A stretch of DNA of 60,668 bases from Acidimicrobiia bacterium (lineage in GTDB: Bacteria; Actinomycetota; Acidimicrobiia; Spongiisociales; SHLN01): assembly GCA_041619515.1 (NCBI GenBank), contig JBFKDW010000008.1:1-60668 (forward strand), read 5' to 3'. This document shows, in pieces, positions 3,312-22,616 of this stretch; positions within the stretch are counted from its first letter, which is position 1; each line of letters starts with the position of its first letter. A program made the position numbers and the translations under genes. Under the pieces are notes generated by a model that did no database searches, was not told where the DNA came from, and saw only the letters and a program-made list of their open reading frames with translations.

Positions 3312-4562
3312 TCAGTCTGATCCCAGGCCGGCCGGTGCCAGCCGGACTGCCGCCTCGATGGCGTTGTAGACCTGGCGAGTGAGGTTCCTGTCGCCCGGCG
3401 GCATCAGGTTGGACATGACCCGGAATGTCCACTCCATCAGCGGACGAGACCTGAATCCGGCGGTCATGAACGCCCGCATGATGGAGGGATTTCCGATGGC
3501 CCGAACGAACACCCTTCCGACCCGGTAGTAGTCGCCGAACTCGGCTTCGAGCTCCTCGGGAAACCTGCGCAGGATCGACAAGTCATCGGCCACCAGCGCC
3601 CGGTGGGCGGTGTCTGCAGCCATTCGCCCCGTCTGGTACCCGTAGGCGATGCCTTCCCCGGTGAACGGGTTGGTCGATCCCAGCGCGTCTCCCACCAGCA
3701 CCCAGTTGGGTCCGGCGATCGGCCCGCCCGACATGGCCATCGACAGCTTGCCCCCGACCGGTTCGGTGAGCCGGGACGTCCAGTCCACCTGCCAGTGGCC
3801 GGGAAGGTTGTGCAGGTAGGTATCGAGCAACTGGCCCGTGTTGACCCCCTTCCACCGTTTGCTGGTGGACAACAGCCCCACCCCGATGTTGACGGTCCGG
3901 TCACCGAGAGGGAAGGTCCATCCGTAGCCGGGGACGTTCTTTCCTTCCCTGTCTTTCAAATCGAGCAAGCTCTCCATCATGTCGTCGCCGGCGAATGGGC
4001 TCGAGTAGTACGCCCGCAGCGCCAAACCGTACGGGGCTTTGCGGTCCCGGCCGACACCGAGCGGGCGACCGAAACGCGACACTGCCCCGTCGGCGATCAC
4101 AACCATGCGGGGTGTCATGATCTCGGTGTCACCGTTGCGCGAAACGGCGACACCGGCCAGCCGGCCGTCGTCGATGACCGGGGCAGCCAGTGCTCCGTCG
4201 TGGATGACCACCCCCTGCTTCTCGGCCAGCATCGCCACCTGCTCATCGAGGTCGGCCCGGCGGATGATGGCGCCCCACCGCGGGTAGATCGGATGGTCGG
4301 GCCACCGCATCTCGAGCATCGAGCCGGCCCCGTAGGAGCGGAGCCCGTTGATTCTGTGCAGCTCGGGGACGTCGAAATCGAAACCCATCTGCTGGAGCTC
4401 GTGAATCGCCCGCGGGGTGAGCCCGTCGCCGCAGGTCTTCTCTCGCGGATAGGTCTTCTTCTCGATCAGCGCGACCGAGTGACCGGCCTTGGCCAGCCAG
4501 TGGGCGGCGCTGGCCCCGGAGGGACCACCCCCGACCACGACGACATCGAGAGACTGGGACAT
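3312..4562 (-). CDS. Geranylgeranyl reductase family FAD oxidoreductase (MenJ-like menaquinone side-chain reductase candidate)
   Basis: VVGGGPSG, REKTCGDGLTPRA, GYGWTFP and GD...NPFTGEGI motifs. Confidence 0.85.
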   Translation of the reverse strand: MSQSLDVVVVGGGPSGASAAHWLAKAGHSVALIEKKTYPREKTCGDGLTPRAIHELQQMGFDFDVPELHRINGLRSYGAGSMLEMRWPDHPIYPRWGAIIRRADLDEQVAMLAEKQGVVIHDGALAAPVIDDGRLAGVAVSRNGDTEIMTPRMVVIADGAVSRFGRPLGVGRDRKAPYGLALRAYYSSPFAGDDMMESLLDLKDREGKNVPGYGWTFPLGDRTVNIGVGLLSTSKRWKGVNTGQLLDTYLHNLPGHWQVDWTSRLTEPVGGKLSMAMSGGPIAGPNWVLVGDALGSTNPFTGEGIAYGYQTGRMAADTAHRALVADDLSILRRFPEELEAEFGDYYRVGRVFVRAIGNPSIMRAFMTAGFRSRPLMEWTFRVMSNLMPPGDRNLTRQVYNAIEAAVRLAPAGLGSD

Positions 4563-4646: not shown

Positions 4647-5549
4647 TCAGGTCACGATCAGAGCGGTGCCCGCCGAGGCGAGGAGGGCGCCCACCCAGGC
4701 TCCGCCGGCGGGGCGCTCTCGGGTGAACATCCATATCAGCGGAAGCTGAATCACCGGCGACGTCGACACGAGGATGCTGACGATTCCCGGCTCGCCGGTG
4801 CTGAGCGCAACGAGAACCAGCGTCTTGCCGATGACCATGGCCAGGGTGCCCGACACGAGGATGATGCCCCACAGCTTCCAGCCGATGCGAGCCGGATACG
4901 GGATGCGGGCCCGACGCTCGAAGTAGCCCCGCAGAGCGATGAGCGCTCCCAGCCCCACGATCGCCCGGACCGCCGCCGCCGCCCATGGATCGATATCGGT
5001 TTCAAATGCCGGATCGGCGAGCAGGACCCCGCCGGCCTGGCCGGCGGCGCCCAGCAAGCCGAAGCCGACGCCAACCCAGAGGCGGCCCCGGATCTCTTCC
5101 CAGTGATGGTTCTGACCGGGCCGTGTGCCAAACCCGACGGCGAGAGTCACACCCACCATGACGAGCGCCGAACCGAGCAGCGCCGACGGCGAGAAGCGCT
5201 CGGCGAACAGCACCGCGCTGGCGACGGCCGCCATCGGGGCGTTGAGGGAGAACAGTATGCCGGTGCGACGCGGCCCGACGATCGCGAACGCCGAGAACAG
5301 GGCGACGTCGCCGAGCGCCAGCCCAACCACGCCGGAGGACCCGAGCAGCAGCACCTCGCGGGTCCCGAGCGAAGCCCAGTCGCCAAACAGAGTGGCGATG
5401 GAAGCGAGCGCCAACGCCACCCAATACATCCGCAACCGCGTGAACCGGGGCCCTCCCAGCGCTTTGGTGGGAGCGGCGGCAATGAGGCCCCCGAGCGCCC
5501 AGGTGAAGGCGGCCCCGAGCGCGGCTGCTTCGAATGGAAGAGCGCTCAT
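4647..5549 (-). CDS. DMT/EamA family transporter
   Basis: About 10 hydrophobic segments in two repeats; start uncertain (5549 or 5558). Confidence 0.85.
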   Translation of the reverse strand: MSALPFEAAALGAAFTWALGGLIAAAPTKALGGPRFTRLRMYWVALALASIATLFGDWASLGTREVLLLGSSGVVGLALGDVALFSAFAIVGPRRTGILFSLNAPMAAVASAVLFAERFSPSALLGSALVMVGVTLAVGFGTRPGQNHHWEEIRGRLWVGVGFGLLGAAGQAGGVLLADPAFETDIDPWAAAAVRAIVGLGALIALRGYFERRARIPYPARIGWKLWGIILVSGTLAMVIGKTLVLVALSTGEPGIVSILVSTSPVIQLPLIWMFTRERPAGGAWVGALLASAGTALIVT

Positions 5550-5588
5550 GTGTGGCACAGCCCGCGGGCAGGACGGAGTAGACCGGGA

Positions 5589-6524
5589 CTAGGGACTGGC
5601 GGTCGTGTCCTCGCCGACGGTGAGGCAGTCTGCCTCTACCTCGGCGGCGTCGAGGCCGCCGTGCGTGACGCGCTCGAAGATGACGACGGCGGCTATCTCC
5701 TCGGGCGTGAGGCCTGCGTCCTCATAGGACTGCATGACCCCGCCGCCTCCCACCGGCTTGTTCTGGGCCCCATAGGTGTCGCCGACTTCGTTGCGCCAAC
5801 GGTTGCTACCGAGCGCTACCCACGCGATGTGATCGGCGCAGGATGGGAACGTCTCCACCACCGCGCCCCCGGCCAGCGCCGGTCCCGTGCCCCCGCCTCC
5901 GTCTGCTCCATGACAGCTCAGGCAGGCAGGGGACGCGTCTACCGAGTAGAGCGCCGCACCCAGCCGGAGCGGGTTGCCGCCGAGAGAGCCGAATTCGGTC
6001 CCGTCACAATTCTCGGCCACGCCCGTCACCGGATCGACCGCCAGCGCACCCCCGCGACCGCAGCTGGGCCCGGTGGCGAAGGTGGCGGCATAGAAGAGGG
6101 CGACGAGCGGTACCACCATGAAGGTGGCGGCCAGCCAGCGCGGCAGTGACTTGCGCCTCAGCTCGCGAATCCCTGCCGAGCCCACGAGTACCTCCTCGGG
6201 CTCTTCCTCCGGCTCCGGCTCGGGCTCGGGCTCGGGCTCGGGCTCCGGCTCCGCCTCTGTGCTCGGCGACACCACTTCGACGTCGAGGGTGGCGGCGGGC
6301 TCAGCGGCAGGCGCCGCCGGCGTCGCCGGTGCCGCCGGGGCCGCCGGGGCATCCGACTGGGGGGCGGAACTCACCGAGCCGGCGTCGACACCCGCCCACC
6401 CGGCGAGGATCTGCTCGGGAGCGACGCCTTCGGCAGTTGCCCGAGCCCGCGCCGAACGCCCGACGAGCTCGGCAGGGGCCGATAGTGCGTCCGAGGCGGC
6501 TGAGAGAAGCTGTTCGAAATCCAT
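5589..6524 (-). CDS. Membrane-anchored monoheme cytochrome c with N-terminal helical module and Ala/Pro/Glu-Pro linker
   Basis: CLSCH heme motif, candidate axial Met (VMQSY), single TM after RRKSLPRW. Confidence 0.88.
   Translation of the reverse strand: MDFEQLLSAASDALSAPAELVGRSARARATAEGVAPEQILAGWAGVDAGSVSSAPQSDAPAAPAAPATPAAPAAEPAATLDVEVVSPSTEAEPEPEPEPEPEPEPEEEPEEVLVGSAGIRELRRKSLPRWLAATFMVVPLVALFYAATFATGPSCGRGGALAVDPVTGVAENCDGTEFGSLGGNPLRLGAALYSVDASPACLSCHGADGGGGTGPALAGGAVVETFPSCADHIAWVALGSNRWRNEVGDTYGAQNKPVGGGGVMQSYEDAGLTPEEIAAVVIFERVTHGGLDAAEVEADCLTVGEDTTASP
6211..6252 (-). repeat. 6-bp coding tandem repeat giving an (EP)n rod-like linker
   Basis: ggctc(c/g) x7 on the plus strand. Confidence 0.85.
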
Positions 6525-8462
6525 TTACTGCAGGCTCACGATGTACTGGGCGAGCGCATCGAGCTCGTCGTCTGTCAGGTAATCGTAGGAGGGCATCGCG
6601 GACCACGCGCGACCAAGGCGGGGGTTCGCCAGATGGCCGGCCACCCAGTCGACGTCGTCGGTGGGCGCCCGCCGACCGGCATGAGCCAGGTCCGGCCCGA
6701 GGCGGATGCGACCGAGCAGAGCAGGAGAGGTAAGGGTGACGTCCTGCCGACTGGTGACGGCCCCGAGACCGACGTCCGTGACGTTGGCGCGGACCTGTTG
6801 GGTGTGGCAGTACACACACCCCTCGGCGATGTAGATGTCCCGACCCTCGGCGACCAGGCGCAGGTCGAGGCCGAGCTCGGCAAGGAGGTCGGCTGCCTGG
6901 GGCGCACCGGTACCGGCGGCGAACGCCTCGTAGTCACGGGAGGAAACGGCCAGCAGGCTCGGCTCCTCATCGGACGCGTCCAGCACCGGCATGAGCACGG
7001 TGGTCAGGAAGGCGGCTCCGATGATGAGCACCGCTGCTGCCGCGACTTTGTTGGGCGGGAGCACTCCGAGCTCATCGGGCTCGGCAGCGTCACCGGAAGG
7101 GGATCCAATCGGAGAGAAGTGCCACCGACCGCCCACGGCCGTCCTCACGGCGAACCAGACCAGCCCGGCGGCCACGAGGACCCAGGCGAGCCAGCGGACC
7201 GTGTCGAAGCCGGCCAGCTGAGCAGTGGTGTTGACGAAACCTTCGCCGTAGTTGACGAAGTCCTGAGAGGCCGGCCCCGCCGACCAGGTGAAGCCGGTGA
7301 GCAGCCCCCCGAGCCAGAGGGTGGCGACCAGGACCGCCACGCCCGGGAACGCCAGCCGCAGCACGGACTCGCCACCCCCCCGCAGATGTGAGAGCAGCGC
7401 CAGCAGCCACATGCTTCCGGCGCCGAGCACTGTGATCACGAAGGTTGCCTCCGTCCAGGTGGTGAACTGGACGATGGTGCTGGAGGACCGGAAGGCCAGC
7501 GCCAGGATCTGCAATCCGAGCAAAGCGAAGAACGAGGTCCCGGCGAGTGCAAGGCGGACGGGTGTCGAACGGCGGGCGGCCGCCCAATCGATCGACAACA
7601 GCAGGTTGGCCACCGCCGCAGTGATGGGAACGAGCACGGCAATGGCAAAGACAACGGTGATGGTCTCGAGCCAATCCGGCCCCGGCCCGAACGTGAATGT
7701 ATGTGCCCCCACCCAGGCGAAGGTCCCCGCCACCGACCAGAAGCTGACAACCGCCAGCCGCATGCTGAACAGGGGCGTATCGGTCAGCTTGGGAATGATG
7801 TAGTAGGCGATGCCGAGACCGGCCGGAACCACCCAGAGGAAAAGCACTCCGGCCTCGGCGAAGCGGTTGACGAGCTCGAGATCCGTGCCGCGAAACCCGG
7901 CCAGGGAGCCAACGAGGTAGGAGACGAGCAGCCACCACACGGATGCCACGAAGAACCACACCGACACGTACACGTGCGGCTCCCGATGGGCGACGGCCGT
8001 CCGGGTCACAACCCGTGTCACCCCGGTGAGGCCGGCGATGATGGCGATATCGGAGTAGAACGGAAACTCGAAGAGCGGGACGCCCTGGTTGCCTCCCAGC
8101 GCTACCGCCACCAGGCCGATGACTGTGCCGGCGGCGATGAGGACCAGCGACAGCAGTGCCAGCGGCTCTTCGTGCAGTGGCGCCCCGGTGAGCCGCGGCA
8201 GCAAGTAGTAGATGGCGCCGATCAGCCCGATCGTGAGCCATCCGAACAGCAGCGCCCCGGTGAACACCGGGTGCAAGCGACCGTAGCTGAGCGGTCCGGA
8301 ATTGAGGAACCCGGGTGCACTCAGCTCGATAGCGAGCAGGAGGCCTGCCGCCGCTCCGATGGCGAGGAATAGTGCGGCGACCCGGAAGTGGATCTTGGCT
8401 AGTGCATCGGCTCGGGCGCCGATGTCGCTCTCTGGCACTGCCGTGTCTGTTGTCAACCTCAC
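6525..8462 (-). CDS. CcoN-like/CcoO-like fusion (cbb3 oxidase subunit I+II homolog); CcoN part lacks most metal ligands
   Basis: CcoN-like segments SYGRL.P, IYYLLPRLTG, VYVSVWFF and YYIIPK; CcoO-like YIAEGCVYCHTQQVR, RLGPDLAH and SAMPSY. Confidence 0.88.
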   Translation of the reverse strand: MRLTTDTAVPESDIGARADALAKIHFRVAALFLAIGAAAGLLLAIELSAPGFLNSGPLSYGRLHPVFTGALLFGWLTIGLIGAIYYLLPRLTGAPLHEEPLALLSLVLIAAGTVIGLVAVALGGNQGVPLFEFPFYSDIAIIAGLTGVTRVVTRTAVAHREPHVYVSVWFFVASVWWLLVSYLVGSLAGFRGTDLELVNRFAEAGVLFLWVVPAGLGIAYYIIPKLTDTPLFSMRLAVVSFWSVAGTFAWVGAHTFTFGPGPDWLETITVVFAIAVLVPITAAVANLLLSIDWAAARRSTPVRLALAGTSFFALLGLQILALAFRSSSTIVQFTTWTEATFVITVLGAGSMWLLALLSHLRGGGESVLRLAFPGVAVLVATLWLGGLLTGFTWSAGPASQDFVNYGEGFVNTTAQLAGFDTVRWLAWVLVAAGLVWFAVRTAVGGRWHFSPIGSPSGDAAEPDELGVLPPNKVAAAAVLIIGAAFLTTVLMPVLDASDEEPSLLAVSSRDYEAFAAGTGAPQAADLLAELGLDLRLVAEGRDIYIAEGCVYCHTQQVRANVTDVGLGAVTSRQDVTLTSPALLGRIRLGPDLAHAGRRAPTDDVDWVAGHLANPRLGRAWSAMPSYDYLTDDELDALAQYIVSLQ

Positions 8463-8585
8463 TCCCGAACGCTTCGCACGAGGTTACATCGAGCCGTCCT
8501 CGCCGGGCGATTCTCGTCCAAGGGATTGCGAAATCCAAGCCCCGCCGTCCGGGCCGGCCCCATTTGCTCCGGCTAGCGTCCCGAT

Positions 8586-9017
8586 ATGGACGACGCGGAC
8601 GCATTGGCCCGGCTATCCGCGGCTCGGGTTGCGGTTCTGGCGACCGTTCGGCCCGAGGGTGGCCCCCATCTGGTGCCCGTGACATTTGCCTCGCTCGGCA
8701 ATCGGCTCGTCTCGGCCATCGACCACAAGCCGAAGCGGACCGGCCGCCTGCAGCGGCTGGAGAACATCCGGGCCGACCCGCGGGTATCACTGCTGGTGCA
8801 CGGGTACGACGATACGTGGCGCCGGCTCTGGTGGGTGCGAGCCGACGGCTCCGCCGCGATCATCGATCGGGGAGTCGACTTCGAGGCAGCACGAGCGGCC
8901 CTGGTGGAGAAGTATGTTCACTATCGAAGCCGCTCCCCGGCAGGCCCGGTCATCGAGATTGCGGTCGAACGGGTGGTCGGGTGGGAGTCGTCCCCGGGTG
9001 AGGCCATCGGGACGTAG
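8586..9017 (+). CDS. PPOX-class F420-dependent oxidoreductase (Rv0121-like)
   Basis: LATV..PHLVPVTFA, IDHKPK and LWWVRADG motifs. Confidence 0.85.
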   Translation: MDDADALARLSAARVAVLATVRPEGGPHLVPVTFASLGNRLVSAIDHKPKRTGRLQRLENIRADPRVSLLVHGYDDTWRRLWWVRADGSAAIIDRGVDFEAARAALVEKYVHYRSRSPAGPVIEIAVERVVGWESSPGEAIGT

Positions 9018-9107
9018 TCTGCTCATCACGAAGCCGGCGACCACCGGCGCGGTAAAGTGGGCGCCGCATCACCGGGCGTGAAAGACTCGGCAGGATTAGG
9101 ACACGGC

Positions 9108-9695
9108 TTGACTGAGCAACGACGCAAACTCATCGGGATCGGCGGGATCGTCGCCGGGCTCGGCATGGTGGCGGTAGGCCTCGTCGTCGCCCACTTCACG
9201 TTCCTACCCACCGAAGACGCGCTCGGCAACGAGGTGCTCCCGTCGATACCGCGCGGCTGGCAGCTATACACACTCGGCCAGCTCGTCGCCGTCGGGGGCA
9301 GCCAGCTGATCGTGGCGGGGGTCTTTATCGGCTGGCTGTGGGAGAAACCCATCACCTGGGTGCGGGCGGCCGTTGCCTCGCTGCTCGGTTGGTTCCAGCT
9401 CGTCCTGTACTTTGGGATCATCCCCTCCGAGATGCTCAACCTGGCACAGGGGCCGCTCGAGTGGACATCCCGCACGGCCTTCACCATCCCGAGCTGGCTC
9501 GTGCTGAACAACGAGATCTCGATCAGCTGGCTGACCATCAAGGACGCACTGGTCGCCGGCTATTACACCAATGCGTTCATCGTGCTGATCGTCGGCATCT
9601 ACATGGCGCAGGTGTGGATCAAGAAGCGGGCCGAAGCCACCCCGGTCATCGAGATATCCACCTGGGGCAGGCCGATGCGGAAAGGCAGCGCCTGA
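9108..9695 (+). CDS. Uncharacterised multi-pass membrane protein, first gene of the Rieske/cytochrome b operon
   Basis: 3-4 hydrophobic segments; TGATG overlap with the ferredoxin; start uncertain (9057 or TTG 9108). Confidence 0.75.
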   Translation: MTEQRRKLIGIGGIVAGLGMVAVGLVVAHFTFLPTEDALGNEVLPSIPRGWQLYTLGQLVAVGGSQLIVAGVFIGWLWEKPITWVRAAVASLLGWFQLVLYFGIIPSEMLNLAQGPLEWTSRTAFTIPSWLVLNNEISISWLTIKDALVAGYYTNAFIVLIVGIYMAQVWIKKRAEATPVIEISTWGRPMRKGSA

Positions 9696-10138
9696 TGGCC
9701 GGCGAGATCTGGGAGACACCGCCATTCCGGGACGACTATCAGCTGGCAGTGGTCGATCCCACCTACATTCAAGAGGCGGTCCGTCCCAAGCAGTTCCTCC
9801 ACATCAACCAGGCTGAGTGCATCCTGTGCGAGGGCTGCGTGGACATCTGTCCCTGGAAATGCATCCACTACTTGTCGGTCGACGTCATCGAAGAGGCCGT
9901 CAACGTCGCCGACCCGGCCGCCGATGCCGGCAACCTCGGGGTGTTCATCGTCGACGAGGACGAATGTACCCGGTGCGCCCTGTGTATCGATCGATGCCCG
10001 ACGGGTGTGATCACGCTCGGCAAGTTCGCCGGCTCGCTGGCCGACCAGGCCGACCAGCTCGGCCTGCCCGCACCGTGGGAGATCGACACCGGCGATCGGG
10101 ATTTCAAGAACGGCTACGCGTACGGGGTGCGATGGTGA
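9695..10138 (+). CDS. 2x[4Fe-4S] ferredoxin
   Basis: CILCEGCVDICP and CTRCALCIDRCP; ATG at 9695 overlaps the upstream stop; no signal peptide. Confidence 0.92.
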   Translation: MAGEIWETPPFRDDYQLAVVDPTYIQEAVRPKQFLHINQAECILCEGCVDICPWKCIHYLSVDVIEEAVNVADPAADAGNLGVFIVDEDECTRCALCIDRCPTGVITLGKFAGSLADQADQLGLPAPWEIDTGDRDFKNGYAYGVRW

Positions 10139-10150
10139 GAAAGGGCGATC

Positions 10151-10939
10151 TTGGCTAACGGCAATGGGAACGGCAACGGCGGGCTCAGGCTGAAAGAGCG
10201 ACTGTCCGGCGTGGGAACCAAGCTGCGCGACAGTGAGGCATGGGCGAGTATCTTCAGGCCCGGGTCGCCGTTCCGAGCGGGATACTCGGACTCACCGCGC
10301 AACCGGTCGTACGTCATCATGAACAACGTTCTCTATCACCTCCACCCGGTGAAAGTGAAACGCCACGGCGTGCGACTGTCCTACACGCTGTGTCTCGGCG
10401 GCCTGTCGTTCTTCTTGTTCATCCTGCTGACCGTGACGGGCATCTTCCTGATGTTCTATTACACCCCGTCGGCCGAGGCGGCCTACGCCGACGTCCAGGC
10501 GTTGTCGACCAGCGTGACGTTTGGCGGCCTGGTTCGAAACCTCCACCGCTGGGGCGCCCACTTCATGGTCATCACGGTGTTTCTCCACATGAGCAGGGTC
10601 TTCTACCACGGCGCCTACAAGCCACCCAGGGAGTTCAACTGGGTCATCGGCGTGATCCTCCTGCTGCTCACGCTGTTGCTCTCGTTCACCGGATACTTGC
10701 TGCCCTGGGATCAGCTGGCGCTGTGGGCCGTGACCGTCGGTGGCTCGATGGCCGGCTTCACCCCGGTGTTCGGTGACCAGGTGACCTTCGCCCTACTGGG
10801 TGGCGTCGAGATCTCGGGAGCGACGTTGCTCAGGTTCTACGTGCTCCACGTCTTGTTCCTGCCGTTCATCATCGTCATCTTCATGGCCGTGCATTTCTGG
10901 CGGGTTCGCAAGGATGGCGGCATCTCCGGTCCCCTTTAG
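10151..10939 (+). CDS. Cytochrome b6-type (short, 4-helix) cytochrome b of a Rieske/cyt b complex
   Basis: YTLCLGG (heme-ci Cys position), LHRWGAH...[13 protein letters not shown], helix-D H-x14-H and C-terminal GISGPL. Confidence 0.93.
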
Positions 10940-10954
10940 GCTCGAGGAATCCAT

Positions 10955-12133
10955 ATGGCTGACATCCCAGATCCACTGCTCCGCAGATCGGCCGAGGCGA
11001 GGGCGAGCGCCGAGGGCGTGACCGTCGAGGAGATCCTCGCTCGCTGGCGTGGTGAGGCTCCGGCGGAGGCATCGCCGCCTCCGGCGACGCCCGCCGAGGA
11101 TGCTCCGGCCCCCGCCGCCGCACCTGCGGCTGCTGCCATGTCGACCGAGGAGTACGCCAAGGCGGCCGCCGCAGCCTCCGGCATGCCCGAAAAGCTCATC
11201 ATGCGCTCCGCCCAGGCCAAAGCCAAGGCACAGGGAGTCCCCGTCGAAAGCGTCCTCGCCGAGATGGCCGGCCTCCCCGACCCGGGAGCCGCCCCCGCCC
11301 CGGCCGCAGCAGGCGCCGCCCCCACCGCAGGCGCCGCACCGGTGGCTGCTGCCATGTCGACCGAGGAGTACGCCAAGGCGGCCGCCGCAGCCTCCGGCAT
11401 GCCCGAAAAGCTCCTCATGCGCTCCGCCCAGGCCAAGGCCAAGGCACAGGGAGTCCCCGTCGAAAGCGTCCTCGCCGAGATGGCCGGCCTCCCCGACCCC
11501 GGAGCCGGCCCCCCTCCCCCGGCGCTCGCCCCGACGGGCACCAACGGGACTGCCGCGGCCCCCGCCCCGGCGCCGGCTGCCGTTCCTGCCCCGGCCCCGA
11601 GCGGGCCGCCCGAGGGGGTTCGCACCCAACGTCTCCTCACCGTCGTCCAGGCGAAGGCCATCCAGCAGGTCAAGGCAGAGCCGACCGACAAAGTGAACGT
11701 GTGGCCGCACCTGCTTGCCATCGAGTTCGTCGCCCTGCTGGCGGTGACGGCCGTACTCATCGTGATCTCGGTCATCATCAACGCGCCGCTGCTGGAGGCT
11801 GCCAACTTCAACCTCACCCCGAATCCCTCTAAGGCCCCGTGGTATTTCCTCGGGCTCCAGGAGTTGCTCTCCTACTTCGATCCGATGATCGCCGGGGTGC
11901 TCATTCCCGGGCTCATCGGCCTCGTCGGCCTGATGGCGATCCCCTACATCGATCGGAATCCGTCGGTGCGACCCGCCGACCGCAAGCTGGCCATCATGAT
12001 GTTCACGTTCTTCCTGATGGGTGCCGCCACGCTCGTGATCCTCGGATCGTTCTTCCGGGGGCCGGGTTTCAACTTCACCTACCCCTGGAGCGACGGCGTG
12101 TTCTTCGACGACCTCAAGGACTGGCTGGAATGA
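10955..12133 (+). CDS. Cytochrome b6f subunit IV (PetD-like) with long repeated N-terminal extension
   Basis: [24 protein letters not shown] (PEWY-like) and PYIDRNP; 3 TM segments. Confidence 0.9.
11116..11507 (+). repeat. In-frame near-identical duplication (~175 bp units, period 216 bp) within subunit IV
   Basis: [20 protein letters not shown](I/L)[30 protein letters not shown] begins at 11138 and again at 11354. Confidence 0.95.
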
Positions 12134-12960
12134 GCGCAGGACAAGCAGCCGCCTTGGGAATTGCCATCGTCGCCGTCCTCTCCTCGGTGGCCATACTCGC
12201 CCTCGCCTGGCGAAGAGAAAGCGAATCTTCATCGATCGGCACGCTCGATCGCGAGGCGAGACGCGCCCGCGTCCGGCGGCCCGTGCTCGGCGCTTCGGGC
12301 GCGGCCGTGCCGGGGGAAGCAGACCGCCCGGTGGAGGCCGCCGCCGTAGCCGTCGGCGAGCCGGCCGAGGCTTCCTCCCGCGTCGTCGAGCTGACCCCCG
12401 CCCAATTCGGCGAAACTCGCCGCCAATTCCTCAACCGCGCCATAGGGGTCTCCTTCGGAGCCTTCCTGGCATTCTTCGGGATCACCTCGCTTGCGTTCCT
12501 GTGGCCGCGGCTCAGAGGCGGCTTCGGCGGCAAGATCGATGCCGGAGCCATCTCCGACATCAAGGAGGCGATCTTCCAGCCCGACGGCTCCATCGAGCCC
12601 TTCTACGTCGCCGAGGCCAAGACCTACGTTGTTCCCTTCAACCAGGGGTTGATCGACGAAACGGACTTCGCAGGTATCGATGTGGTCGTCGAAGGGCTGA
12701 CCGGGCTGTGGCAAAAGTGCGTGCACCTGGGTTGCCGGGTGCCGTGGTGCAATTCCTCGCAGGGCTTCGAGTGCCCCTGTCACGGATCCAAGTACAACGC
12801 GGCGGGTGAATACGAGGCCGGCCCGGCTCCGCGCAATCTCGACCGGTTCACGCTCGAAGCAGTCGAGGGACGGTTGATCATCAACACCGGGGCCGTGCGC
12901 GATACCCCCCGGGCCAAGGTCAAGACCGTGCCGTACCCACAGGGGCCGAACTGCCTGTGA
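12130..12960 (+). CDS. Rieske [2Fe-2S] subunit
   Basis: CVHLGC and CPCHGSKY; internal Tat motif TRRQFL; ATGA overlap with the subunit IV stop. Confidence 0.93.
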
Positions 12961-12967
12961 GCGCTCC

Positions 12968-14461
12968 GTGAGCCTCGGACCTTTCGCCGTCATCATTGCG
13001 GTCGTGTTCCTGCTGGGCGGCTTGGCCTACCTCGTGAACAGCGGACGCGGCCCCCGGCCCGGCCGCGAGGTGCCGCCCAACCTGGCCCCCTACCTGACCG
13101 ACGAGGAACTGGAGACCTCCCGGCTCAATCGTACGCTGGTCACCGCCCTGTTCTCCTCGGCGTTCCTTGCCATCGCACTGCCGGTGTACTTCCTCACCGA
13201 GTCGGGCCGCCAGGATGATTTCGTGCACATGTTCGAGGAAGAAGCCATCCACATCGGCGAGGCGATCTACCTCAGGCAGACTCCGGACAACCCAGAGGGT
13301 TTTGGCTGCATCGCCTGTCACGGTGCCGAAGGAGTTGGCGGGGGCGCAACCTATGTCGATCCCCGTACCGGCGCCAGTGTCACCTGGCCGGCCCCGGCCC
13401 TCAACGACGTGCTGTATCGATACGACGAGGAGGAGGTGCGCTACTGGCTCATCTGGGGCCGCCCCGGCAGCCCGATGCCGGCCTGGGGCGTCGAGGCAGG
13501 CGGCCCGCTCAACGATCAGCAACTCGATTTCGTCATCGAGTATCTCCGGTCCATCCAGATTTCCCAGGACGAGGCAATCGGAGAGGTCGACAACCGCGTC
13601 GCCGCGGAACTCGCCAAGCTCGAGGCCGCCCCGGCCACGATCGACACGGCCATTGCCGGCCAGCGGGGTCGCCTGGCCGCCATCGTCAGTGCCCCTGATC
13701 GGCTGGAATGGGCCGAGCGCCTGTTTAGCGATCTGGAGCAAGTGCTCGACGCCGCACCCTCAGGGCTCGATACGGACCTCGACGGTCTGTCGGACGACGA
13801 CGAGATCCAGGTCAACCGCATTTCCGAGCTGGCGTTTGCCAACGTCGGCACCGACGCCACCCCGGCGACGGCCTCCGCCGCAGATTTGCTGGTTCTGCTG
13901 CTCGACCCCGCCAACCCCTTCTCGACCAACGACGACGTGGGAGAACCGATACCAGACGCGATCGCGGCCACCCAATTGCTCGCCGAGCTCGAGAGCCAGG
14001 TCGCCACCTTGTCGCCGATCGCTCTGAATGTCGACACGCTTCGATCCGCCGCCGAAGCGGCCCTTTCCAATCTGGAGGCTGCGCGCGCGGCCGAGCGGTA
14101 CACCGTCGACTTCGAGGCCCTCGCCGAGAGCACGTTCGGGGGCGACATCGAGACGGCGCAACGGGCGTACGGCCTGTACTCGGCCTACTGCGCCCGCTGC
14201 CACACCGCCGGGTATTCCGCAGGACCCGCTGCCACCCTCGCTCCCGGCTCCGGGGCGCTCGGCCCTTCCCTGCGAGAGGGCCGCTCCATCGTTCAGTTCC
14301 CGGACTTCGAAGATCACTACGAGTTCATCGTCGACGGATCCGAGAACGGTCAACCGTATGGTGTGAATGGCATCGGCCGCGGCTGGATGCCGGGGTTCGG
14401 CGCTGTTCTCTCGGAGGCCGACATCCGCCTCATCGTCGAGTTCGAAAGGAGCCTCGATTGA
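12968..14461 (+). CDS. Membrane-anchored di-heme cytochrome c
   Basis: CIACH...PMPAW and CARCH...WMPGF; two N-terminal hydrophobic segments. Confidence 0.9.
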   Translation: MSLGPFAVIIAVVFLLGGLAYLVNSGRGPRPGREVPPNLAPYLTDEELETSRLNRTLVTALFSSAFLAIALPVYFLTESGRQDDFVHMFEEEAIHIGEAIYLRQTPDNPEGFGCIACHGAEGVGGGATYVDPRTGASVTWPAPALNDVLYRYDEEEVRYWLIWGRPGSPMPAWGVEAGGPLNDQQLDFVIEYLRSIQISQDEAIGEVDNRVAAELAKLEAAPATIDTAIAGQRGRLAAIVSAPDRLEWAERLFSDLEQVLDAAPSGLDTDLDGLSDDDEIQVNRISELAFANVGTDATPATASAADLLVLLLDPANPFSTNDDVGEPIPDAIAATQLLAELESQVATLSPIALNVDTLRSAAEAALSNLEAARAAERYTVDFEALAESTFGGDIETAQRAYGLYSAYCARCHTAGYSAGPAATLAPGSGALGPSLREGRSIVQFPDFEDHYEFIVDGSENGQPYGVNGIGRGWMPGFGAVLSEADIRLIVEFERSLD

Positions 14462-14805
14462 TCGACATCACTCTGCCCGAGAGCGTCGTCTTCCGCGGAC
14501 TGTTCGTGACGATCGGGTCGATCATCGTGTTCTACGGGAGCGTCTACCTGCTCGTGTACACCAATCTGGGCAAGAAGCTCGCCTTCCTGATTTCGGGCGC
14601 GGCCCTGTTCGGATGGACATTTCTCAACAGCCTCCTGTTCGTCATCTACGCGCCGCGCGGACCGCGCCCCGCCGTTATCGACGGTCTCAACTTCTTCGAG
14701 GTTCGAGTCACGGCACTCAGCTTCATGCTGGGATCGGCCATTCTGTTCATCATGTTCCTGGTGGCACTCAACCGCCTCGAGACCGCGGATTCCGACACGA
14801 CGTGA
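14458..14805 (+). CDS. Small 3-TM membrane protein (possible accessory subunit)
   Basis: Overlaps the cytochrome c stop; three hydrophobic segments. Confidence 0.75.
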   Translation: MIDITLPESVVFRGLFVTIGSIIVFYGSVYLLVYTNLGKKLAFLISGAALFGWTFLNSLLFVIYAPRGPRPAVIDGLNFFEVRVTALSFMLGSAILFIMFLVALNRLETADSDTT

Positions 14806-14921
14806 CCGCCCTATGCTTTCTGGGTAGTGCACCCCTATCCGGCTTGTGCCGCACCTCGAACGGCCTGTCCCGGCCGTGGCTTCGTCGCCATATCGGATGA
14901 GCGCCGCCTGACCGATCCGGC

Positions 14922-15551
14922 ATGAAGGGCATACCTCCTGCCACAGTGCAACGACTCCCCATCTACCTGCGGTGCCTGGGTGAGTACGGCAAGCAGACGA
15001 TCTCATCCGAGAGCCTGGCCGAGCTGGCGAGAGTCAACTCGGCGAAGGTCCGTAAGGACCTTTCTTTCCTCGGCTCGTACGGAACACGGGGCGTCGGCTA
15101 CGACGTCGACCACCTCGTCTATCAAATCGGCCGCGAGCTGGGATTGACCAAGGACTGGGCGGTGTGCATCGTCGGGATGGGGAACCTCGGCCGGGCACTC
15201 TCCAAGTACCGCGGATTCGGTGAGCGCGGATTCGCCGTGCTCGGCCTGTTCGACATCGATCCCGCCAAGATAGGCAAGAAGGTCGCGGGCAGGGTGATCG
15301 AGCCTCTGAGCGCTCTGAGCGACGCAGTCAGGGACCGCCAGCTCTCGATCGGCGTGATCACAACACCGGCCAATGCCGCCCAGGAGGTAGCCGACATCAT
15401 GGTGCAAGCCGGCATCACCTCGATCCTCAACTTCGCGCCGACCGTCCTGTCGAAACCCGACCACGTCGACGTGCGTCGCGTCGATCTCTCCACCGAGCTT
15501 CAAATCTGCAGCTTCTACCTGGCGAGAGCTTCCGGAAAGCGGGCCAGCTGA
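14922..15551 (+). CDS. rex: Redox-sensing transcriptional repressor Rex
   Basis: IPPATVQRLPIYLR, VRKDLSFLGSYGTRGVGY, GMGNLG and ILNFAP. Confidence 0.97.
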   Translation: MKGIPPATVQRLPIYLRCLGEYGKQTISSESLAELARVNSAKVRKDLSFLGSYGTRGVGYDVDHLVYQIGRELGLTKDWAVCIVGMGNLGRALSKYRGFGERGFAVLGLFDIDPAKIGKKVAGRVIEPLSALSDAVRDRQLSIGVITTPANAAQEVADIMVQAGITSILNFAPTVLSKPDHVDVRRVDLSTELQICSFYLARASGKRAS

Positions 15552-20613: not shown

Positions 20614-21522
20614 TCAGAAGAAGAGCCCGTCGACGGCGATGGCGCCGAACAGCAGTGTCAGGTAGACGTTCGAGTAGCCGAAGAAGCGCATCGCTTCGTC
20701 CGGATGGGAACGCAGCCGCAGCGCCCCCCCGACAAACCCGGCGCCGAGCGCGACGGCCGCCCCCAGGTAGAAGAAGCTCATGTCACCGGCCGGGAACAGG
20801 ACGAGAGTGAGAGCGGCCAGCTGGAGGCTGTAGAGGAAGATGCTGTCCAGCGTCGCCTTCTCCCCCATCACCACCGGGAGCATGGGAATCCCGGCTTGCT
20901 CGTAGTCATCCCGGTATCTCAGCGACAGCGCCCAAAAATGCGGCGGCGTCCAGAAGAACACGATCGCGAACAAGAGCCACGGCGCCAGCGACAGCGAGTC
21001 GCTGACCGCCGCCCACCCGACCAGGACCGGCACGGCACCGGCGGCACCGCCGATGACGATGTTCTGACTGGATGACCGTTTCAACCAGAGCGTGTACACG
21101 AAGACGTAGAACAGCAGGGCGGCCGTCGCCAATGCAGCCGCCAGCAGGTTCACGGTCATCCACAGCCAGGCGAAGCCGCCGGCGCCCAGCAGAATCCCGA
21201 AGGTGAGGGCGCGGGCGGGAGCGACCTTGTGGGTCGCCATCGGCCGGTGGGCAGTGCGACCCATCACCTGATCGATGTCGCGATCGATCACGTTGTTGAT
21301 GGCATTGGCGCCCCCGGCCGACATAGCGCCACCGACGAGGGTGGCGAGCACCAGCCAGGTTCCCGGCCACGACCGCTCGGCGAGAATCATCGCCGGTACG
21401 GTGGTGACCAGCAGCAGCTCGATGATGCGCGGCTTGGTGAGCGCCACATATGCCCCTACCTTGCCGATGGCCGTCCGTGGGACCGCCCTGGGGTCGGTGA
21501 CCCGTACTCCGGCGGCGCTCAC
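20614..21522 (-). CDS. ctaB: Heme o synthase (protoheme IX farnesyltransferase)
   Basis: LTKPRIIELLL, DRDID..M.RT..RP, YTLWLKR and WTPPHFWAL. Confidence 0.95.
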   Translation of the reverse strand: MSAAGVRVTDPRAVPRTAIGKVGAYVALTKPRIIELLLVTTVPAMILAERSWPGTWLVLATLVGGAMSAGGANAINNVIDRDIDQVMGRTAHRPMATHKVAPARALTFGILLGAGGFAWLWMTVNLLAAALATAALLFYVFVYTLWLKRSSSQNIVIGGAAGAVPVLVGWAAVSDSLSLAPWLLFAIVFFWTPPHFWALSLRYRDDYEQAGIPMLPVVMGEKATLDSIFLYSLQLAALTLVLFPAGDMSFFYLGAAVALGAGFVGGALRLRSHPDEAMRFFGYSNVYLTLLFGAIAVDGLFF

Positions 21523-22439
21523 GCCGGGACCTCCGATCGGCTCGGTATCAGAACATCGGCTGCCAGCACCACCAGCACGATCCAGACGAGATCCGCCACC
21601 AGCAAATGGGCGAGCTGGATCCAGACGGGGGCTGCCAGAAGCGCATTCACCGTCCCAACCACCAGTTGTCCCAACACCAGTACGCCGACGAGTCGCGAGA
21701 GGCGGGCGATGCTGCCGCCGCGGCCCTCGGCCACCTGGTTGGCCACCCACACGGCCAGTAGGGCCGCGCCGATTGCGATGACCGGGTGGTAGATGCGCAG
21801 CCTCTCGAACAGGTGGGCGGTGGCTGACAGCTCCCGCTCGAGGCCGGCCACGAACGAGTCGACCGGAAAGAGCGTGTCACCCAGGGCGGCGATGGCGCCG
21901 CTGATCCCGACGAGGAGCATCGACCCGAGGGCGCTCAGCAAGAGCCAGCGATCGCGAAGCGTCGGAATCACAGTGCTGTCGGGCCCGGGGGTCGCGGACC
22001 ACCAGGCGGTGAGGGTCGCCGCCGCCAGCAATAGCAGCGTGTTGGCAAAATGGCCCGCTTGCCAGTACGCCCGGCTCACGCCCTCGAAATCGCCGGTCTG
22101 CTCGAACAGGACGAGCCCGGCACCGATCAGCGACTCGGCGATCACCAGTATCAACGTGGCGGTGGCAGCGCGGCGGACCCGATGCCCGGATGGGAACGTG
22201 CGCACGGCTGAAATGAGCAGGTAGAGAATGAGAACGCCGAGCCCGGCGCTGCTCACCCGGTGCACGAACTCAATCGCCGTCTCGGCAGAGCCGCTCAGCG
22301 GAACCACCTCGCCGTTGCAGGTCGGCCAGTTGTTCCCGCACCCCGCACCCGACCCGGTGGCGCGCACGACGGCGCCCCACAGGACGACGAACACGGTGAC
22401 TCCCACGGTCAGCCAGGCGACTCTTGCAAAGCGGCTCAT
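21519..22439 (-). CDS. ctaA: Heme A synthase (CtaA/COX15 family)
   Basis: VRATGSGAGC..WPTCNG, IEFVHR and QLAHLL. Confidence 0.9.
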   Translation of the reverse strand: MSRFARVAWLTVGVTVFVVLWGAVVRATGSGAGCGNNWPTCNGEVVPLSGSAETAIEFVHRVSSAGLGVLILYLLISAVRTFPSGHRVRRAATATLILVIAESLIGAGLVLFEQTGDFEGVSRAYWQAGHFANTLLLLAAATLTAWWSATPGPDSTVIPTLRDRWLLLSALGSMLLVGISGAIAALGDTLFPVDSFVAGLERELSATAHLFERLRIYHPVIAIGAALLAVWVANQVAEGRGGSIARLSRLVGVLVLGQLVVGTVNALLAAPVWIQLAHLLVADLVWIVLVVLAADVLIPSRSEVPA

Positions 22440-22616
22440 AGCTCGGCCAAGGTTACCGACCTGCACAACCATCGGACTCTGGCTAGTGCAGTGACCATTT
22501 CCCAGAAAACCTCGCCGAATGCAACAGCAATCCCGCCGGACGCGCGTACCATGTCGGAGGGGGAAGAACCCCTCCTCGCCGTCCTCGGCGAGATCCCATC
22601 ACTCACGGAGATATCA

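Follow-up and report, generated by a model that had tools for sequence, protein, structure and literature searches.

A conserved complex III variant with its own ferredoxin gene and an optional pseudo-oxidase module in Acidimicrobiia

Gene content of the locus

The window analyzed here, that is, the whole stretch of 60,668 nucleotides from an Acidimicrobiia genome (G000:C8:1-60668, G000 being the window genome), carries two divergent respiratory operons. The right operon, on the plus strand, encodes a cytochrome b6-type complex III together with a ferredoxin; the left operon, on the minus strand, encodes a homolog of the cbb3 oxidase subunits CcoN and CcoO, fused in one protein and lacking metal ligands (hereafter pseudo-CcoN, with CcoO* for the CcoO-like part), and a membrane-anchored cytochrome c. 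Taken together, they represent a real, strongly conserved and uncharacterized complex III variant with an optional pseudo-oxidase module. An initial annotation of this DNA had interpreted both operons as a single respiratory supercomplex, and all the genes that it listed are present. The features of the two operons are:

5589-6524, minus strand: membrane-anchored mono-haem cytochrome c, a CcoP-like relic (Cytochrom_C match; weak FixP_N match, E 0.003)
6525-8462, minus strand: ligand-less CcoN with 12 transmembrane helices, fused to a CcoO-like haem c domain (COX1, E 8e-37; FixO, E 5e-19; one CxxCH)
9057-9695, plus strand: family-less membrane protein of four long helices, which opens the complex III operon and is a candidate anchor of the ferredoxin
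9695-10138, plus strand: predicted cytoplasmic 2x[4Fe-4S] ferredoxin of 147 residues with two CxxCxxCxxxCP motifs, candidate n-side subunit of b6
10151-10939, plus strand: cytochrome b6, with four b-haem His, a CLGG haem-ci motif (81) and, facing the cytoplasm, HLHP and WRVRK
10955-12133, plus strand: subunit IV (APWY motif of the quinol-oxidation, or Qo, site at 294; WPHxxxxE at 250; N-terminal extension of 215 residues)
12130-12960, plus strand: Rieske [2Fe-2S] protein (S-x-Y high-potential signature, CPCHGSKY)
12968-14461, plus strand: di-haem cytochrome c, membrane-anchored, its haems separated by a long insertion
14458-14805, plus strand: small membrane protein without Pfam or NCBIfam family, last gene of the operon

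From the first membrane protein gene to that of the small membrane protein, the intergenic gaps of the right operon range from -4 to +15 bp.

A split cytochrome b complex of the APWY clade

The right operon encodes the main complex III of Acidimicrobiia, standard in this class and in several further deep classes of Actinomycetota. We examined a class panel of 251 genomes, a phylum panel of 301 genomes and 160 loci arranged in four sets: set A, 40 loci picked for long contigs and family spread among 82 pseudo-CcoN-positive genomes; set B, 20 b6 loci from other orders; set C, 20 loci from other classes, chosen by their ferredoxin; and set D, the best 80 of 597 b6 matches in GTDB. These sets overlap slightly (L086 and L198 are apparently one genome) and kin loci within them are not independent. 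Cytochrome b6 was matched in 243 of the 251 class genomes, 221 of these at E ≤ 1e-100 as counted among the matches listed, and the best 150 class matches listed are 75-94% identical to it. The operon is also conserved in 11 families of other Actinomycetota classes; its carriers include Ilumatobacteraceae, Microthrixaceae, Egibacteraceae, Aquihabitans sp. G128 and Salinilacustrithrix flava, and its other subunits keep the same order in the 160 loci wherever the contig allows.

The CLGG motif of b6, from which we predict a covalently bound haem ci, is present in 160/160 loci, as are the cytoplasmic-side motifs HxHP (160/160) and WR[VI]RK (160/160), with basic residues at both cytoplasmic ends. 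APWY was found in 148 of 149 subunit IV sequences and WPHxxxxE in 146 of 149, and the S-x-Y signature of the Rieske protein, as defined by Kao and Hunte (2014; PMC4122944), in 141 of 142 loci. When ranked by NCBIfam models, b6 scores best with ExtP, then with Bacillus-type b6 and then with actinobacterial QcrB; it passes the ExtP cut-off (NF040969; 303 bits, cut-off 290) and remains far below that of actinobacterial QcrB (109, cut-off 500).

The complex had been presented as a candidate for an undescribed one, which does not hold for its split cytochrome b. In its accessible sections, the survey of Kao and Hunte (2014) reports split cytochrome b in Ilumatobacter (including Ilumatobacter coccineus) and in Rubrobacteridae, within the APWY or PEWY-cyt c clades, and describes an APWY clade with CxGG and Mid+/high Rieske proteins, no member of which was characterized as of 2014. 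The combination of b6 and subunit IV, APWY, CxGG and a Mid+/high Rieske signature is common to the window, to this clade and to the Geobacter ExtP/ExtQ models, and the core is, by its motifs, a member of the APWY clade. The same sections make no mention of a ferredoxin, accessory membrane proteins, tethered domains or a pseudo-oxidase, and those of Dibrova et al. (2017; PMC5600118) make no mention of Acidimicrobiia. In the open-licence literature, neither the dedicated ferredoxin and the two membrane subunits nor the shared tethered domain and the ligand-less CcoN family turned up, although subscription papers could bear on this; for these accessory parts, the claim of novelty stands to that extent.

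Among better known complexes, b6f and the Firmicute b6c share with the core the split cytochrome b and the haem-ci cysteine, and n-side entry of ferredoxin electrons via haem cn has been proposed for b6f, where the accessible part of the source treats it as an open question in photosynthesis (PMC7908018). The window's complex differs from both in having no cytochrome f, its place being held by a di-haem class I cytochrome c, in its APWY rather than PEWY/PDWY motif, in its operon-encoded 2x[4Fe-4S] ferredoxin and in its non-photosynthetic host. The actinobacterial bcc-aa3 supercomplex (III2IV2) belongs to the same phylum and likewise has a di-haem c subunit and an A-type oxidase sink, but it relies on a long unsplit QcrB with PDWY, whereas here the cytochrome b is split and of the APWY form, extra anchored cytochromes c are encoded and the oxidase subunit II bears haem c.

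The two haems of the di-haem cytochrome c are 276-437 residues apart in 36 of the 37 scored loci chosen by pseudo-CcoN, against 125-256 residues in 19 other-order loci. The long spacing is found in the window's order and in f12, the family with ~1-Mb genomes, while the haems are about 100-260 residues apart elsewhere. The pseudo-CcoN-chosen loci are kin, and G006 and G300 have pseudo-CcoN despite a short spacer. A Pfam scan of the insertion returned no meaningful family; in the window protein (12968-14461), the stretch DTDLDGLSDDDE resembles a calcium-binding loop.

A ferredoxin gene regularly placed next to cytochrome b6

The initial annotation had tied the ferredoxin to b6, and this association is borne out by gene order: 158 of the 160 loci have the ferredoxin gene immediately before b6 (A 39/40, B 20/20, C 20/20, D 79/80). 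As set C was chosen by the ferredoxin, b6 is the test there, and it comes next in 20/20. The two misses are a contig end and the locus of G173, at which the gene was not found. Both cluster motifs are kept in 158/158 ferredoxins, and the ratio of nonsynonymous to synonymous substitution rates (dN/dS) is 0.056. The net charge is -15 in the window and about -11 on average in the family, which has matches in 120 of the 301 phylum genomes at E ≤ 1e-15 (a tally including four genomes marked unpublished). Judging from this conservation, the ferredoxin looks like a partner dedicated to b6, and it is probably a bound subunit of complex III.

The first membrane protein was found in 149 of 160 loci and gives a confident AlphaFold2 (AF2) model (predicted local distance difference test, pLDDT, 94). 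It matches no Pfam or NCBIfam family, including in a Pfam scan of its own family, and a fold search returned helical pairs that are uninformative (best Z 7.9). The small membrane protein was found in 141 of 160 loci, most of the misses being at locus ends. A complex prediction combining b6, subunit IV, the membrane protein and the ferredoxin (score 0.07, mark 0.32), made with one copy per chain, cofactor-free and without controls, is evidence neither way.

A cytoplasmic Fe-S subunit also occurs in the anammox complexes Kuste4569-4574 and Kustd1480-1485 which, according to the accessible part of their description (Hauser et al. 2025; PMC12954380), share with the window a b6-like cytochrome b with subunit IV and, by motif, a candidate haem cN site and a high-potential Rieske protein, which in the window would likewise work with menaquinone. 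Unlike them, the window's complex lacks a large FAD/NAD(P) oxidoreductase and hexa-/octahaem cytochromes, and has instead a flavin-less ferredoxin of 147 residues, a di-haem c and an aerobic caa3 sink.

A CcoN homolog without metal ligands

The fusion protein of the left operon resembles cbb3 CcoNOP (P. stutzeri, 3MK7; natural CcoN-CcoO fusions, PRK14485) in its 12-transmembrane fold, in its CcoO domain with CxxCH and in the anchored cytochrome c encoded downstream. Its AF2 model (pLDDT 93) superposes on 3MK7_A with a TM-score of 0.86 (target length) and a root-mean-square deviation of 2.1 Å, and its best Foldseek matches are 9G83, 3MK7 and 8SMR. It differs from cbb3 in having no ligands for haem b, haem b3 or CuB, in the loss of the cross-link Tyr and of K-channel residues, and in scores far below the cut-offs of the cbb3 models (166 of 1080 and 121 of 583). 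The ligand-less character proposed at first is confirmed against solved CcoN chains: five of the six His ligands (His60, His207, His258, His345 and His347) are replaced, His257 alone being kept, and the cross-link Tyr251 is a Phe. In the K channel, His243 is replaced by Ser and Ser240 by Ala, and only Tyr223 is kept (P. stutzeri numbering).

These losses extend to the whole family. At the six ligand positions, 40 aligned members have mostly Ala, Ser, Gln, Ile and Tyr, and a His stands at the His257 column in 1/40. Ala and Gly predominate where the K channel has Ser240 and His243, and a 62-row alignment contains no invariant His, Cys or Met. Judged from these alignments, the fusion cannot be a functional cbb3 oxidase. 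A working oxidase or NO reductase using unusual ligands or other metal-binding residues could be imagined from the intact fold, from the database name of the family ("cbb3-type cytochrome c oxidase subunit I") and from His64 and His254, both kept in the window protein, but neither His is conserved and the ligand columns are not either, which makes this alternative very improbable. The CcoO part has a CxxCH at 549 and a likely Met ligand in SAMPSY, and its haem motif is kept in 41/41 sequences.

By its substitution rates, the fusion is under purifying selection: dN/dS is 0.17 and 0.15 in comparison with a same-genus genome and 0.04-0.29 over six pairs, these values being approximate because dS is near saturation. 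The protein evolves faster than b6, and in one of the six ~1-Mb genomes examined (G088) it is split into two open reading frames, as might be expected from a decaying pseudogene. Such decay is largely refuted by the selection and distribution data, since the gene is retained in 18 of 26 ~1-Mb genomes and present at the same locus in other classes, and we regard it as extremely improbable.

Pseudo-CcoN was found in 62 of 72 genomes of the window's order, in the 18 of 26 f12 genomes just mentioned (some of the f12 matches covering the CcoO part only), and in the single genomes of families f13 (1/1) and f16 (1/1); a homolog 75% identical to the fusion protein is also from Acidimicrobiia. A profile search was positive in 4 of the 22 genomes examined from other classes, those inspected being also without ligands, and found no full-length pseudo-CcoN in 41 other-order class genomes or in 3 genomes of family f7. 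No cultured carrier of pseudo-CcoN came to light. In a FastTree phylogeny of 146 rows, from which matches shorter than 360 residues were dropped, 83 ligand-less sequences including the query form one clade (Shimodaira-Hasegawa-like support 97) within liganded C-family sequences and next to partly liganded forms. From its tree and distribution, the pseudo-CcoN family is old, patchy, optional and lineage-restricted.

A second ligand-poor CcoN-like group (P0188, P0196, P0149, P0165 and neighbors) is separate in the tree, and one of its clusters has a Verrucomicrobiota member.

A helical domain shared by the two operons

The left cytochrome c consists of a helical N-terminal domain, a Pro/Glu/Ala linker, one transmembrane helix and an outer haem c domain with CxxCH and a likely Met ligand; with its single CxxCH and weak FixP_N and ccoP matches, it is not a di-haem CcoP. 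It is encoded in 40/40 set-A loci and in many Acidimicrobiia loci without pseudo-CcoN. Its helical domain, of about 35-45 residues, is shared with the N-terminus of subunit IV, which carries three copies in the window; across the 40 set-A loci there are 2-6 copies per locus. Two of the window copies were added to subunit IV by a 216-bp internal duplication (93% identical; 10955-11600). In a search of the whole genome with a profile of the domain, subunit IV and the left cytochrome c alone score (independent E-values 1e-8 to 1e-13; next 0.47), although their own matches are partly circular because the profile was seeded from them. The domain also starts 24 of 25 free CcoO* proteins, unused as profile seed, and 79 of 81 stand-alone left cytochromes c, and many Acidimicrobiia combine a tagged cytochrome c and a tagged subunit IV without pseudo-CcoN/O. 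It was not detected in the 20 set-C loci of other classes, and a Pfam scan gave no meaningful family. The shared domain would tie the left operon to complex III, directly or via a common partner.

In other classes, subunit IV (L117:11330-12199, L127:11430-12287) has a different short helical N-terminus followed by a similar Ala/Pro linker; by eye, this N-terminus resembles the shared domain with its helix order swapped, and it is unscored by the profile.

In 40/40 set-A loci, from 9 families including ~1-Mb genomes, the b6 operon lies inside the 20-kb locus, divergent and usually 1-3 kb away, so that every pseudo-CcoN locus of this set also holds the complex III operon, as the initial annotation expected. 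In G012, the left arm reads ccsB-ccsA-pseudo-CcoN(+cupredoxin domain)-ctaC-ctaD-ctaE-ctaG-CcoO*-cytochrome c-menJ, the pseudo-cbb3 genes flanking an intact caa3 operon, and in families f61 and f85 and in many set-D loci it consists of ccsB-ccsA and an intact caa3 operon. Because caa3 genes occupy these arms, we view the left arm as the oxidase side of a III/IV gene cluster.

The pseudo-CcoN of G012 (L056:10093-12219), which heads the caa3 operon, has extra transmembrane helices and a C-terminal cupredoxin-like domain.

The rest of the respiratory chain

The initial annotation had left two outlets open, an oxidase encoded elsewhere and an external acceptor. The first agrees with the data: the window genome encodes one intact A-type (caa3) oxidase, with haem c on subunit II, on another contig (C51), and three ~1-Mb genomes and G057 have one intact A-type oxidase each, again with haem c on subunit II. 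An external-acceptor pathway was rejected for this locus, which contains no multihaem conduit. No bd oxidase was found in five genomes (the three ~1-Mb genomes, G057 and G000; 87-96% complete), and the right operon is the only Rieske/b complex in the three ~1-Mb genomes and G057. Being the only outlet detected in these small genomes, the right-operon complex must be the quinol outlet to oxygen and have a working quinone-reduction (Qi) site, and on gene content it very probably feeds caa3. Complex I with NuoF was found in 5/5 genomes tested, and so was 2-oxoacid:ferredoxin oxidoreductase (5/5, in a panel differing by one genome). Menaquinone is the quinone of the phylum, which fits the MenJ-like neighbor of the left operon and would make it the likely substrate here.

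Neighboring genes

The genes adjoining or lying between the two operons are:

3312-4562, minus strand: MenJ-like geranylgeranyl reductase, a frequent neighbor in relatives, where the nuo operon is often next; not a subunit
4647-5558, minus strand: EamA/DMT protein, outside the module
8586-9017, plus strand: pyridoxamine-5'-phosphate-oxidase-like (PNPOx-like) gene (PF01243) between the two operons, outside the module
14922-15551, plus strand: Rex redox-sensing repressor, a frequent neighbor, mostly on the opposite strand in relatives

The operon membership first proposed holds for the core genes and has to be amended at its margins. The DMT gene was absent from the 40 related (set-A) loci (0/40), and rex is on the same strand as b6 in 2 of them, on the opposite strand in 28 and was not seen in 10. 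The PNPOx-like gene, which had been missed, is present in 1/40. Not being conserved across these loci, all three were rejected as parts of the module. A search for a Rex-operator-like pattern (consensus with at most 3 mismatches) gave 12 matches against 13.3 expected, none of them in the divergent region. The haem o/a synthesis genes ctaB (UbiA family) and ctaA (COX15) lie 5 kb from the locus, at 20614-22472, in agreement with the initial annotation.

Proposed electron path and its alternatives

The best explanation of the data as a whole, to which we assign a probability of about 0.5, is a Q-cycle complex III that would feed caa3, receive electrons from ferredoxin and be associated with a redox-dead cbb3 scaffold. 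The right operon would encode a b6-type menaquinol:cytochrome c reductase of the APWY clade running a Q cycle, with electrons passing from the Rieske protein to the di-haem c, to the tethered mono-haem c and then to the caa3 encoded elsewhere. The ferredoxin would dock on the basic cytoplasmic face of b6 near haem ci, which fits the acidic ferredoxin and the invariant basic residues of b6, and would most likely act as a point of entry, through which low-potential electrons, such as those delivered by 2-oxoacid:ferredoxin oxidoreductases, reach the quinone-reduction site. The left operon would be a degenerate CcoN-O-P in which CcoN, a redox-dead 12-helix scaffold, holds one or two outer-face c haems; a scaffold role is the simplest reading because pseudo-CcoN cannot bind catalytic metals and its proton-channel residues are lost. 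Pseudo-CcoN/O would then be an optional attachment, tied to complex III via the shared N-terminal domain.

Several observations weigh against this scheme, both in its left and in its right half. Pseudo-CcoN was found in 0 of 150 other class genomes (outside the window's order and f12, f13 and f16), most of which have the same b6 operon, so that the co-occurrence of the two operons does not extend from complex III to pseudo-CcoN; because it was not found in most of the class, pseudo-CcoN/O is optional rather than an obligate subunit. Complex I (nuo) genes are present in 84/160 loci, and ccsAB and menJ are common neighbors; since these genes cluster there too, adjacency alone is weak evidence for one complex. 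The sixth ligand of CcoO, as aligned in 40 sequences, is mostly His (21) or Met (17) and in two cases Gln; all 15 fused forms have Met, and this ligand switch makes a tuned relay role of the CcoO* haem doubtful, at least in split lineages. These points also count for the alternative of no joint assembly, in which pseudo-CcoN/O would act apart, for example in scaffolding, assembly or redox sensing for caa3 or for the maturation of cytochrome c, and would be located here through respiratory gene clustering and a shared promoter region: a switch to His or Gln would shift the potential far from that of a III-to-IV relay, pseudo-CcoN/O adjoins ccsAB or ccm genes in G006, G012, G404 and G300, and in G253 the CcoN-like gene and CcoO* are on different contigs. 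Against separate action stand the shared domain, which subunit IV, free CcoO* and the left cytochrome c carry and nothing else in the genome does, and the longer di-haem c spacer of the pseudo-CcoN loci, with the kinship and the two exceptions given above. We thus hold separate action to be a serious possibility, though somewhat under an even chance, while membership of pseudo-CcoN/O in the complex III assembly could, on these sequence features, go either way. The reading of the locus as a single supercomplex is likewise plausible, and we would as readily bet for it as against it.

On the complex III side, the G173 locus (L068), a natural control, is the only complete one without a ferredoxin gene, the membrane protein gene running directly into b6, which indicates that the ferredoxin is not strictly required. 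A second Rieske/b complex is encoded on contig C10 of the window genome (L006:6745-10101); it consists of a Rieske protein, b6 and a subunit IV that has PEWY and is fused to seven c haems. Two tandem complex I gene sets lie on contig C19 of this genome (G000:C19, about 10,700-39,600), a full NuoA-N and a second one without NuoEFG, and a second NuoD is also found in the three ~1-Mb genomes and G057; the set without NuoEFG is a candidate ferredoxin-fed complex I, which could oxidize ferredoxin instead. Finally, the high-potential Rieske signature combined with menaquinone suits an exit of the anammox type, as far as the accessible part of PMC12954380 goes. Quinol oxidation would then bifurcate, the low-potential electron leaving via haems b/ci, possibly through a dimer-interface haem b, to the ferredoxin and giving reduced ferredoxin, or NAD(P)H via a partner encoded elsewhere. 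In that same part, Rieske proteins of similar anammox complexes have potentials of +303 and +335 mV, implying a haem bP near -475 mV, and in the models haem cN is ligated by a Glu, with a His close by, while an interface haem with His ligands lies next to a C-terminal Arg/Lys. Candidate motifs that may correspond to such features exist here in WPHxxxxE, HxHP and WR[VI]RK (frequencies given above). An exit port is nevertheless unlikely in our view. The operon has no flavin or NAD(P) subunit, and in small aerobes with a sole detected quinol outlet most electrons of the b chain must return to quinone. By our estimate, moreover, an electron at about -440 mV would lose about 150 mV in crossing the membrane potential and could not easily reduce a ferredoxin at -400 mV. 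With a working Qi site as sink and a source of reduced ferredoxin in the cells, the downhill direction is from ferredoxin to quinone; if the ferredoxin is bound, we therefore lean slightly toward entry.

On contig C10, the second Rieske/b complex is followed by ccmF/ccmH/ccmG-like genes and a six-haem cytochrome.

A broader proposal is possible but tentative, and we would not expect it to hold in full: that deep-branching Actinomycetota have a third aerobic-chain architecture, in which a permanently ferredoxin-bound complex III would be both a ferredoxin:cytochrome c oxidoreductase and a quinol oxidase, exchanging electrons with haem ci, perhaps via an extra dimer-interface haem, and in which, in the window's order and the ~1-Mb marine lineage, this complex would form a supercomplex with caa3, built around the catalytically dead cbb3 and fastened by the tethered cytoplasmic domains.

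Significance

A non-photosynthetic complex with an operon-encoded ferredoxin would make the question of electron transfer from ferredoxin to haem cn/ci testable without photosystems, because cultured relatives (Aquihabitans sp. G128 and Salinilacustrithrix flava) carry the right operon. Because databases name the ligand-less family cbb3, these bacteria, abundant in the sea, in soil and in sediment, may be mistaken in genome surveys for carriers of a high-affinity oxidase. Pseudo-CcoN itself would clearly exemplify a haem-copper oxidase that became a pseudoenzyme, retained even by 1-Mb genomes.

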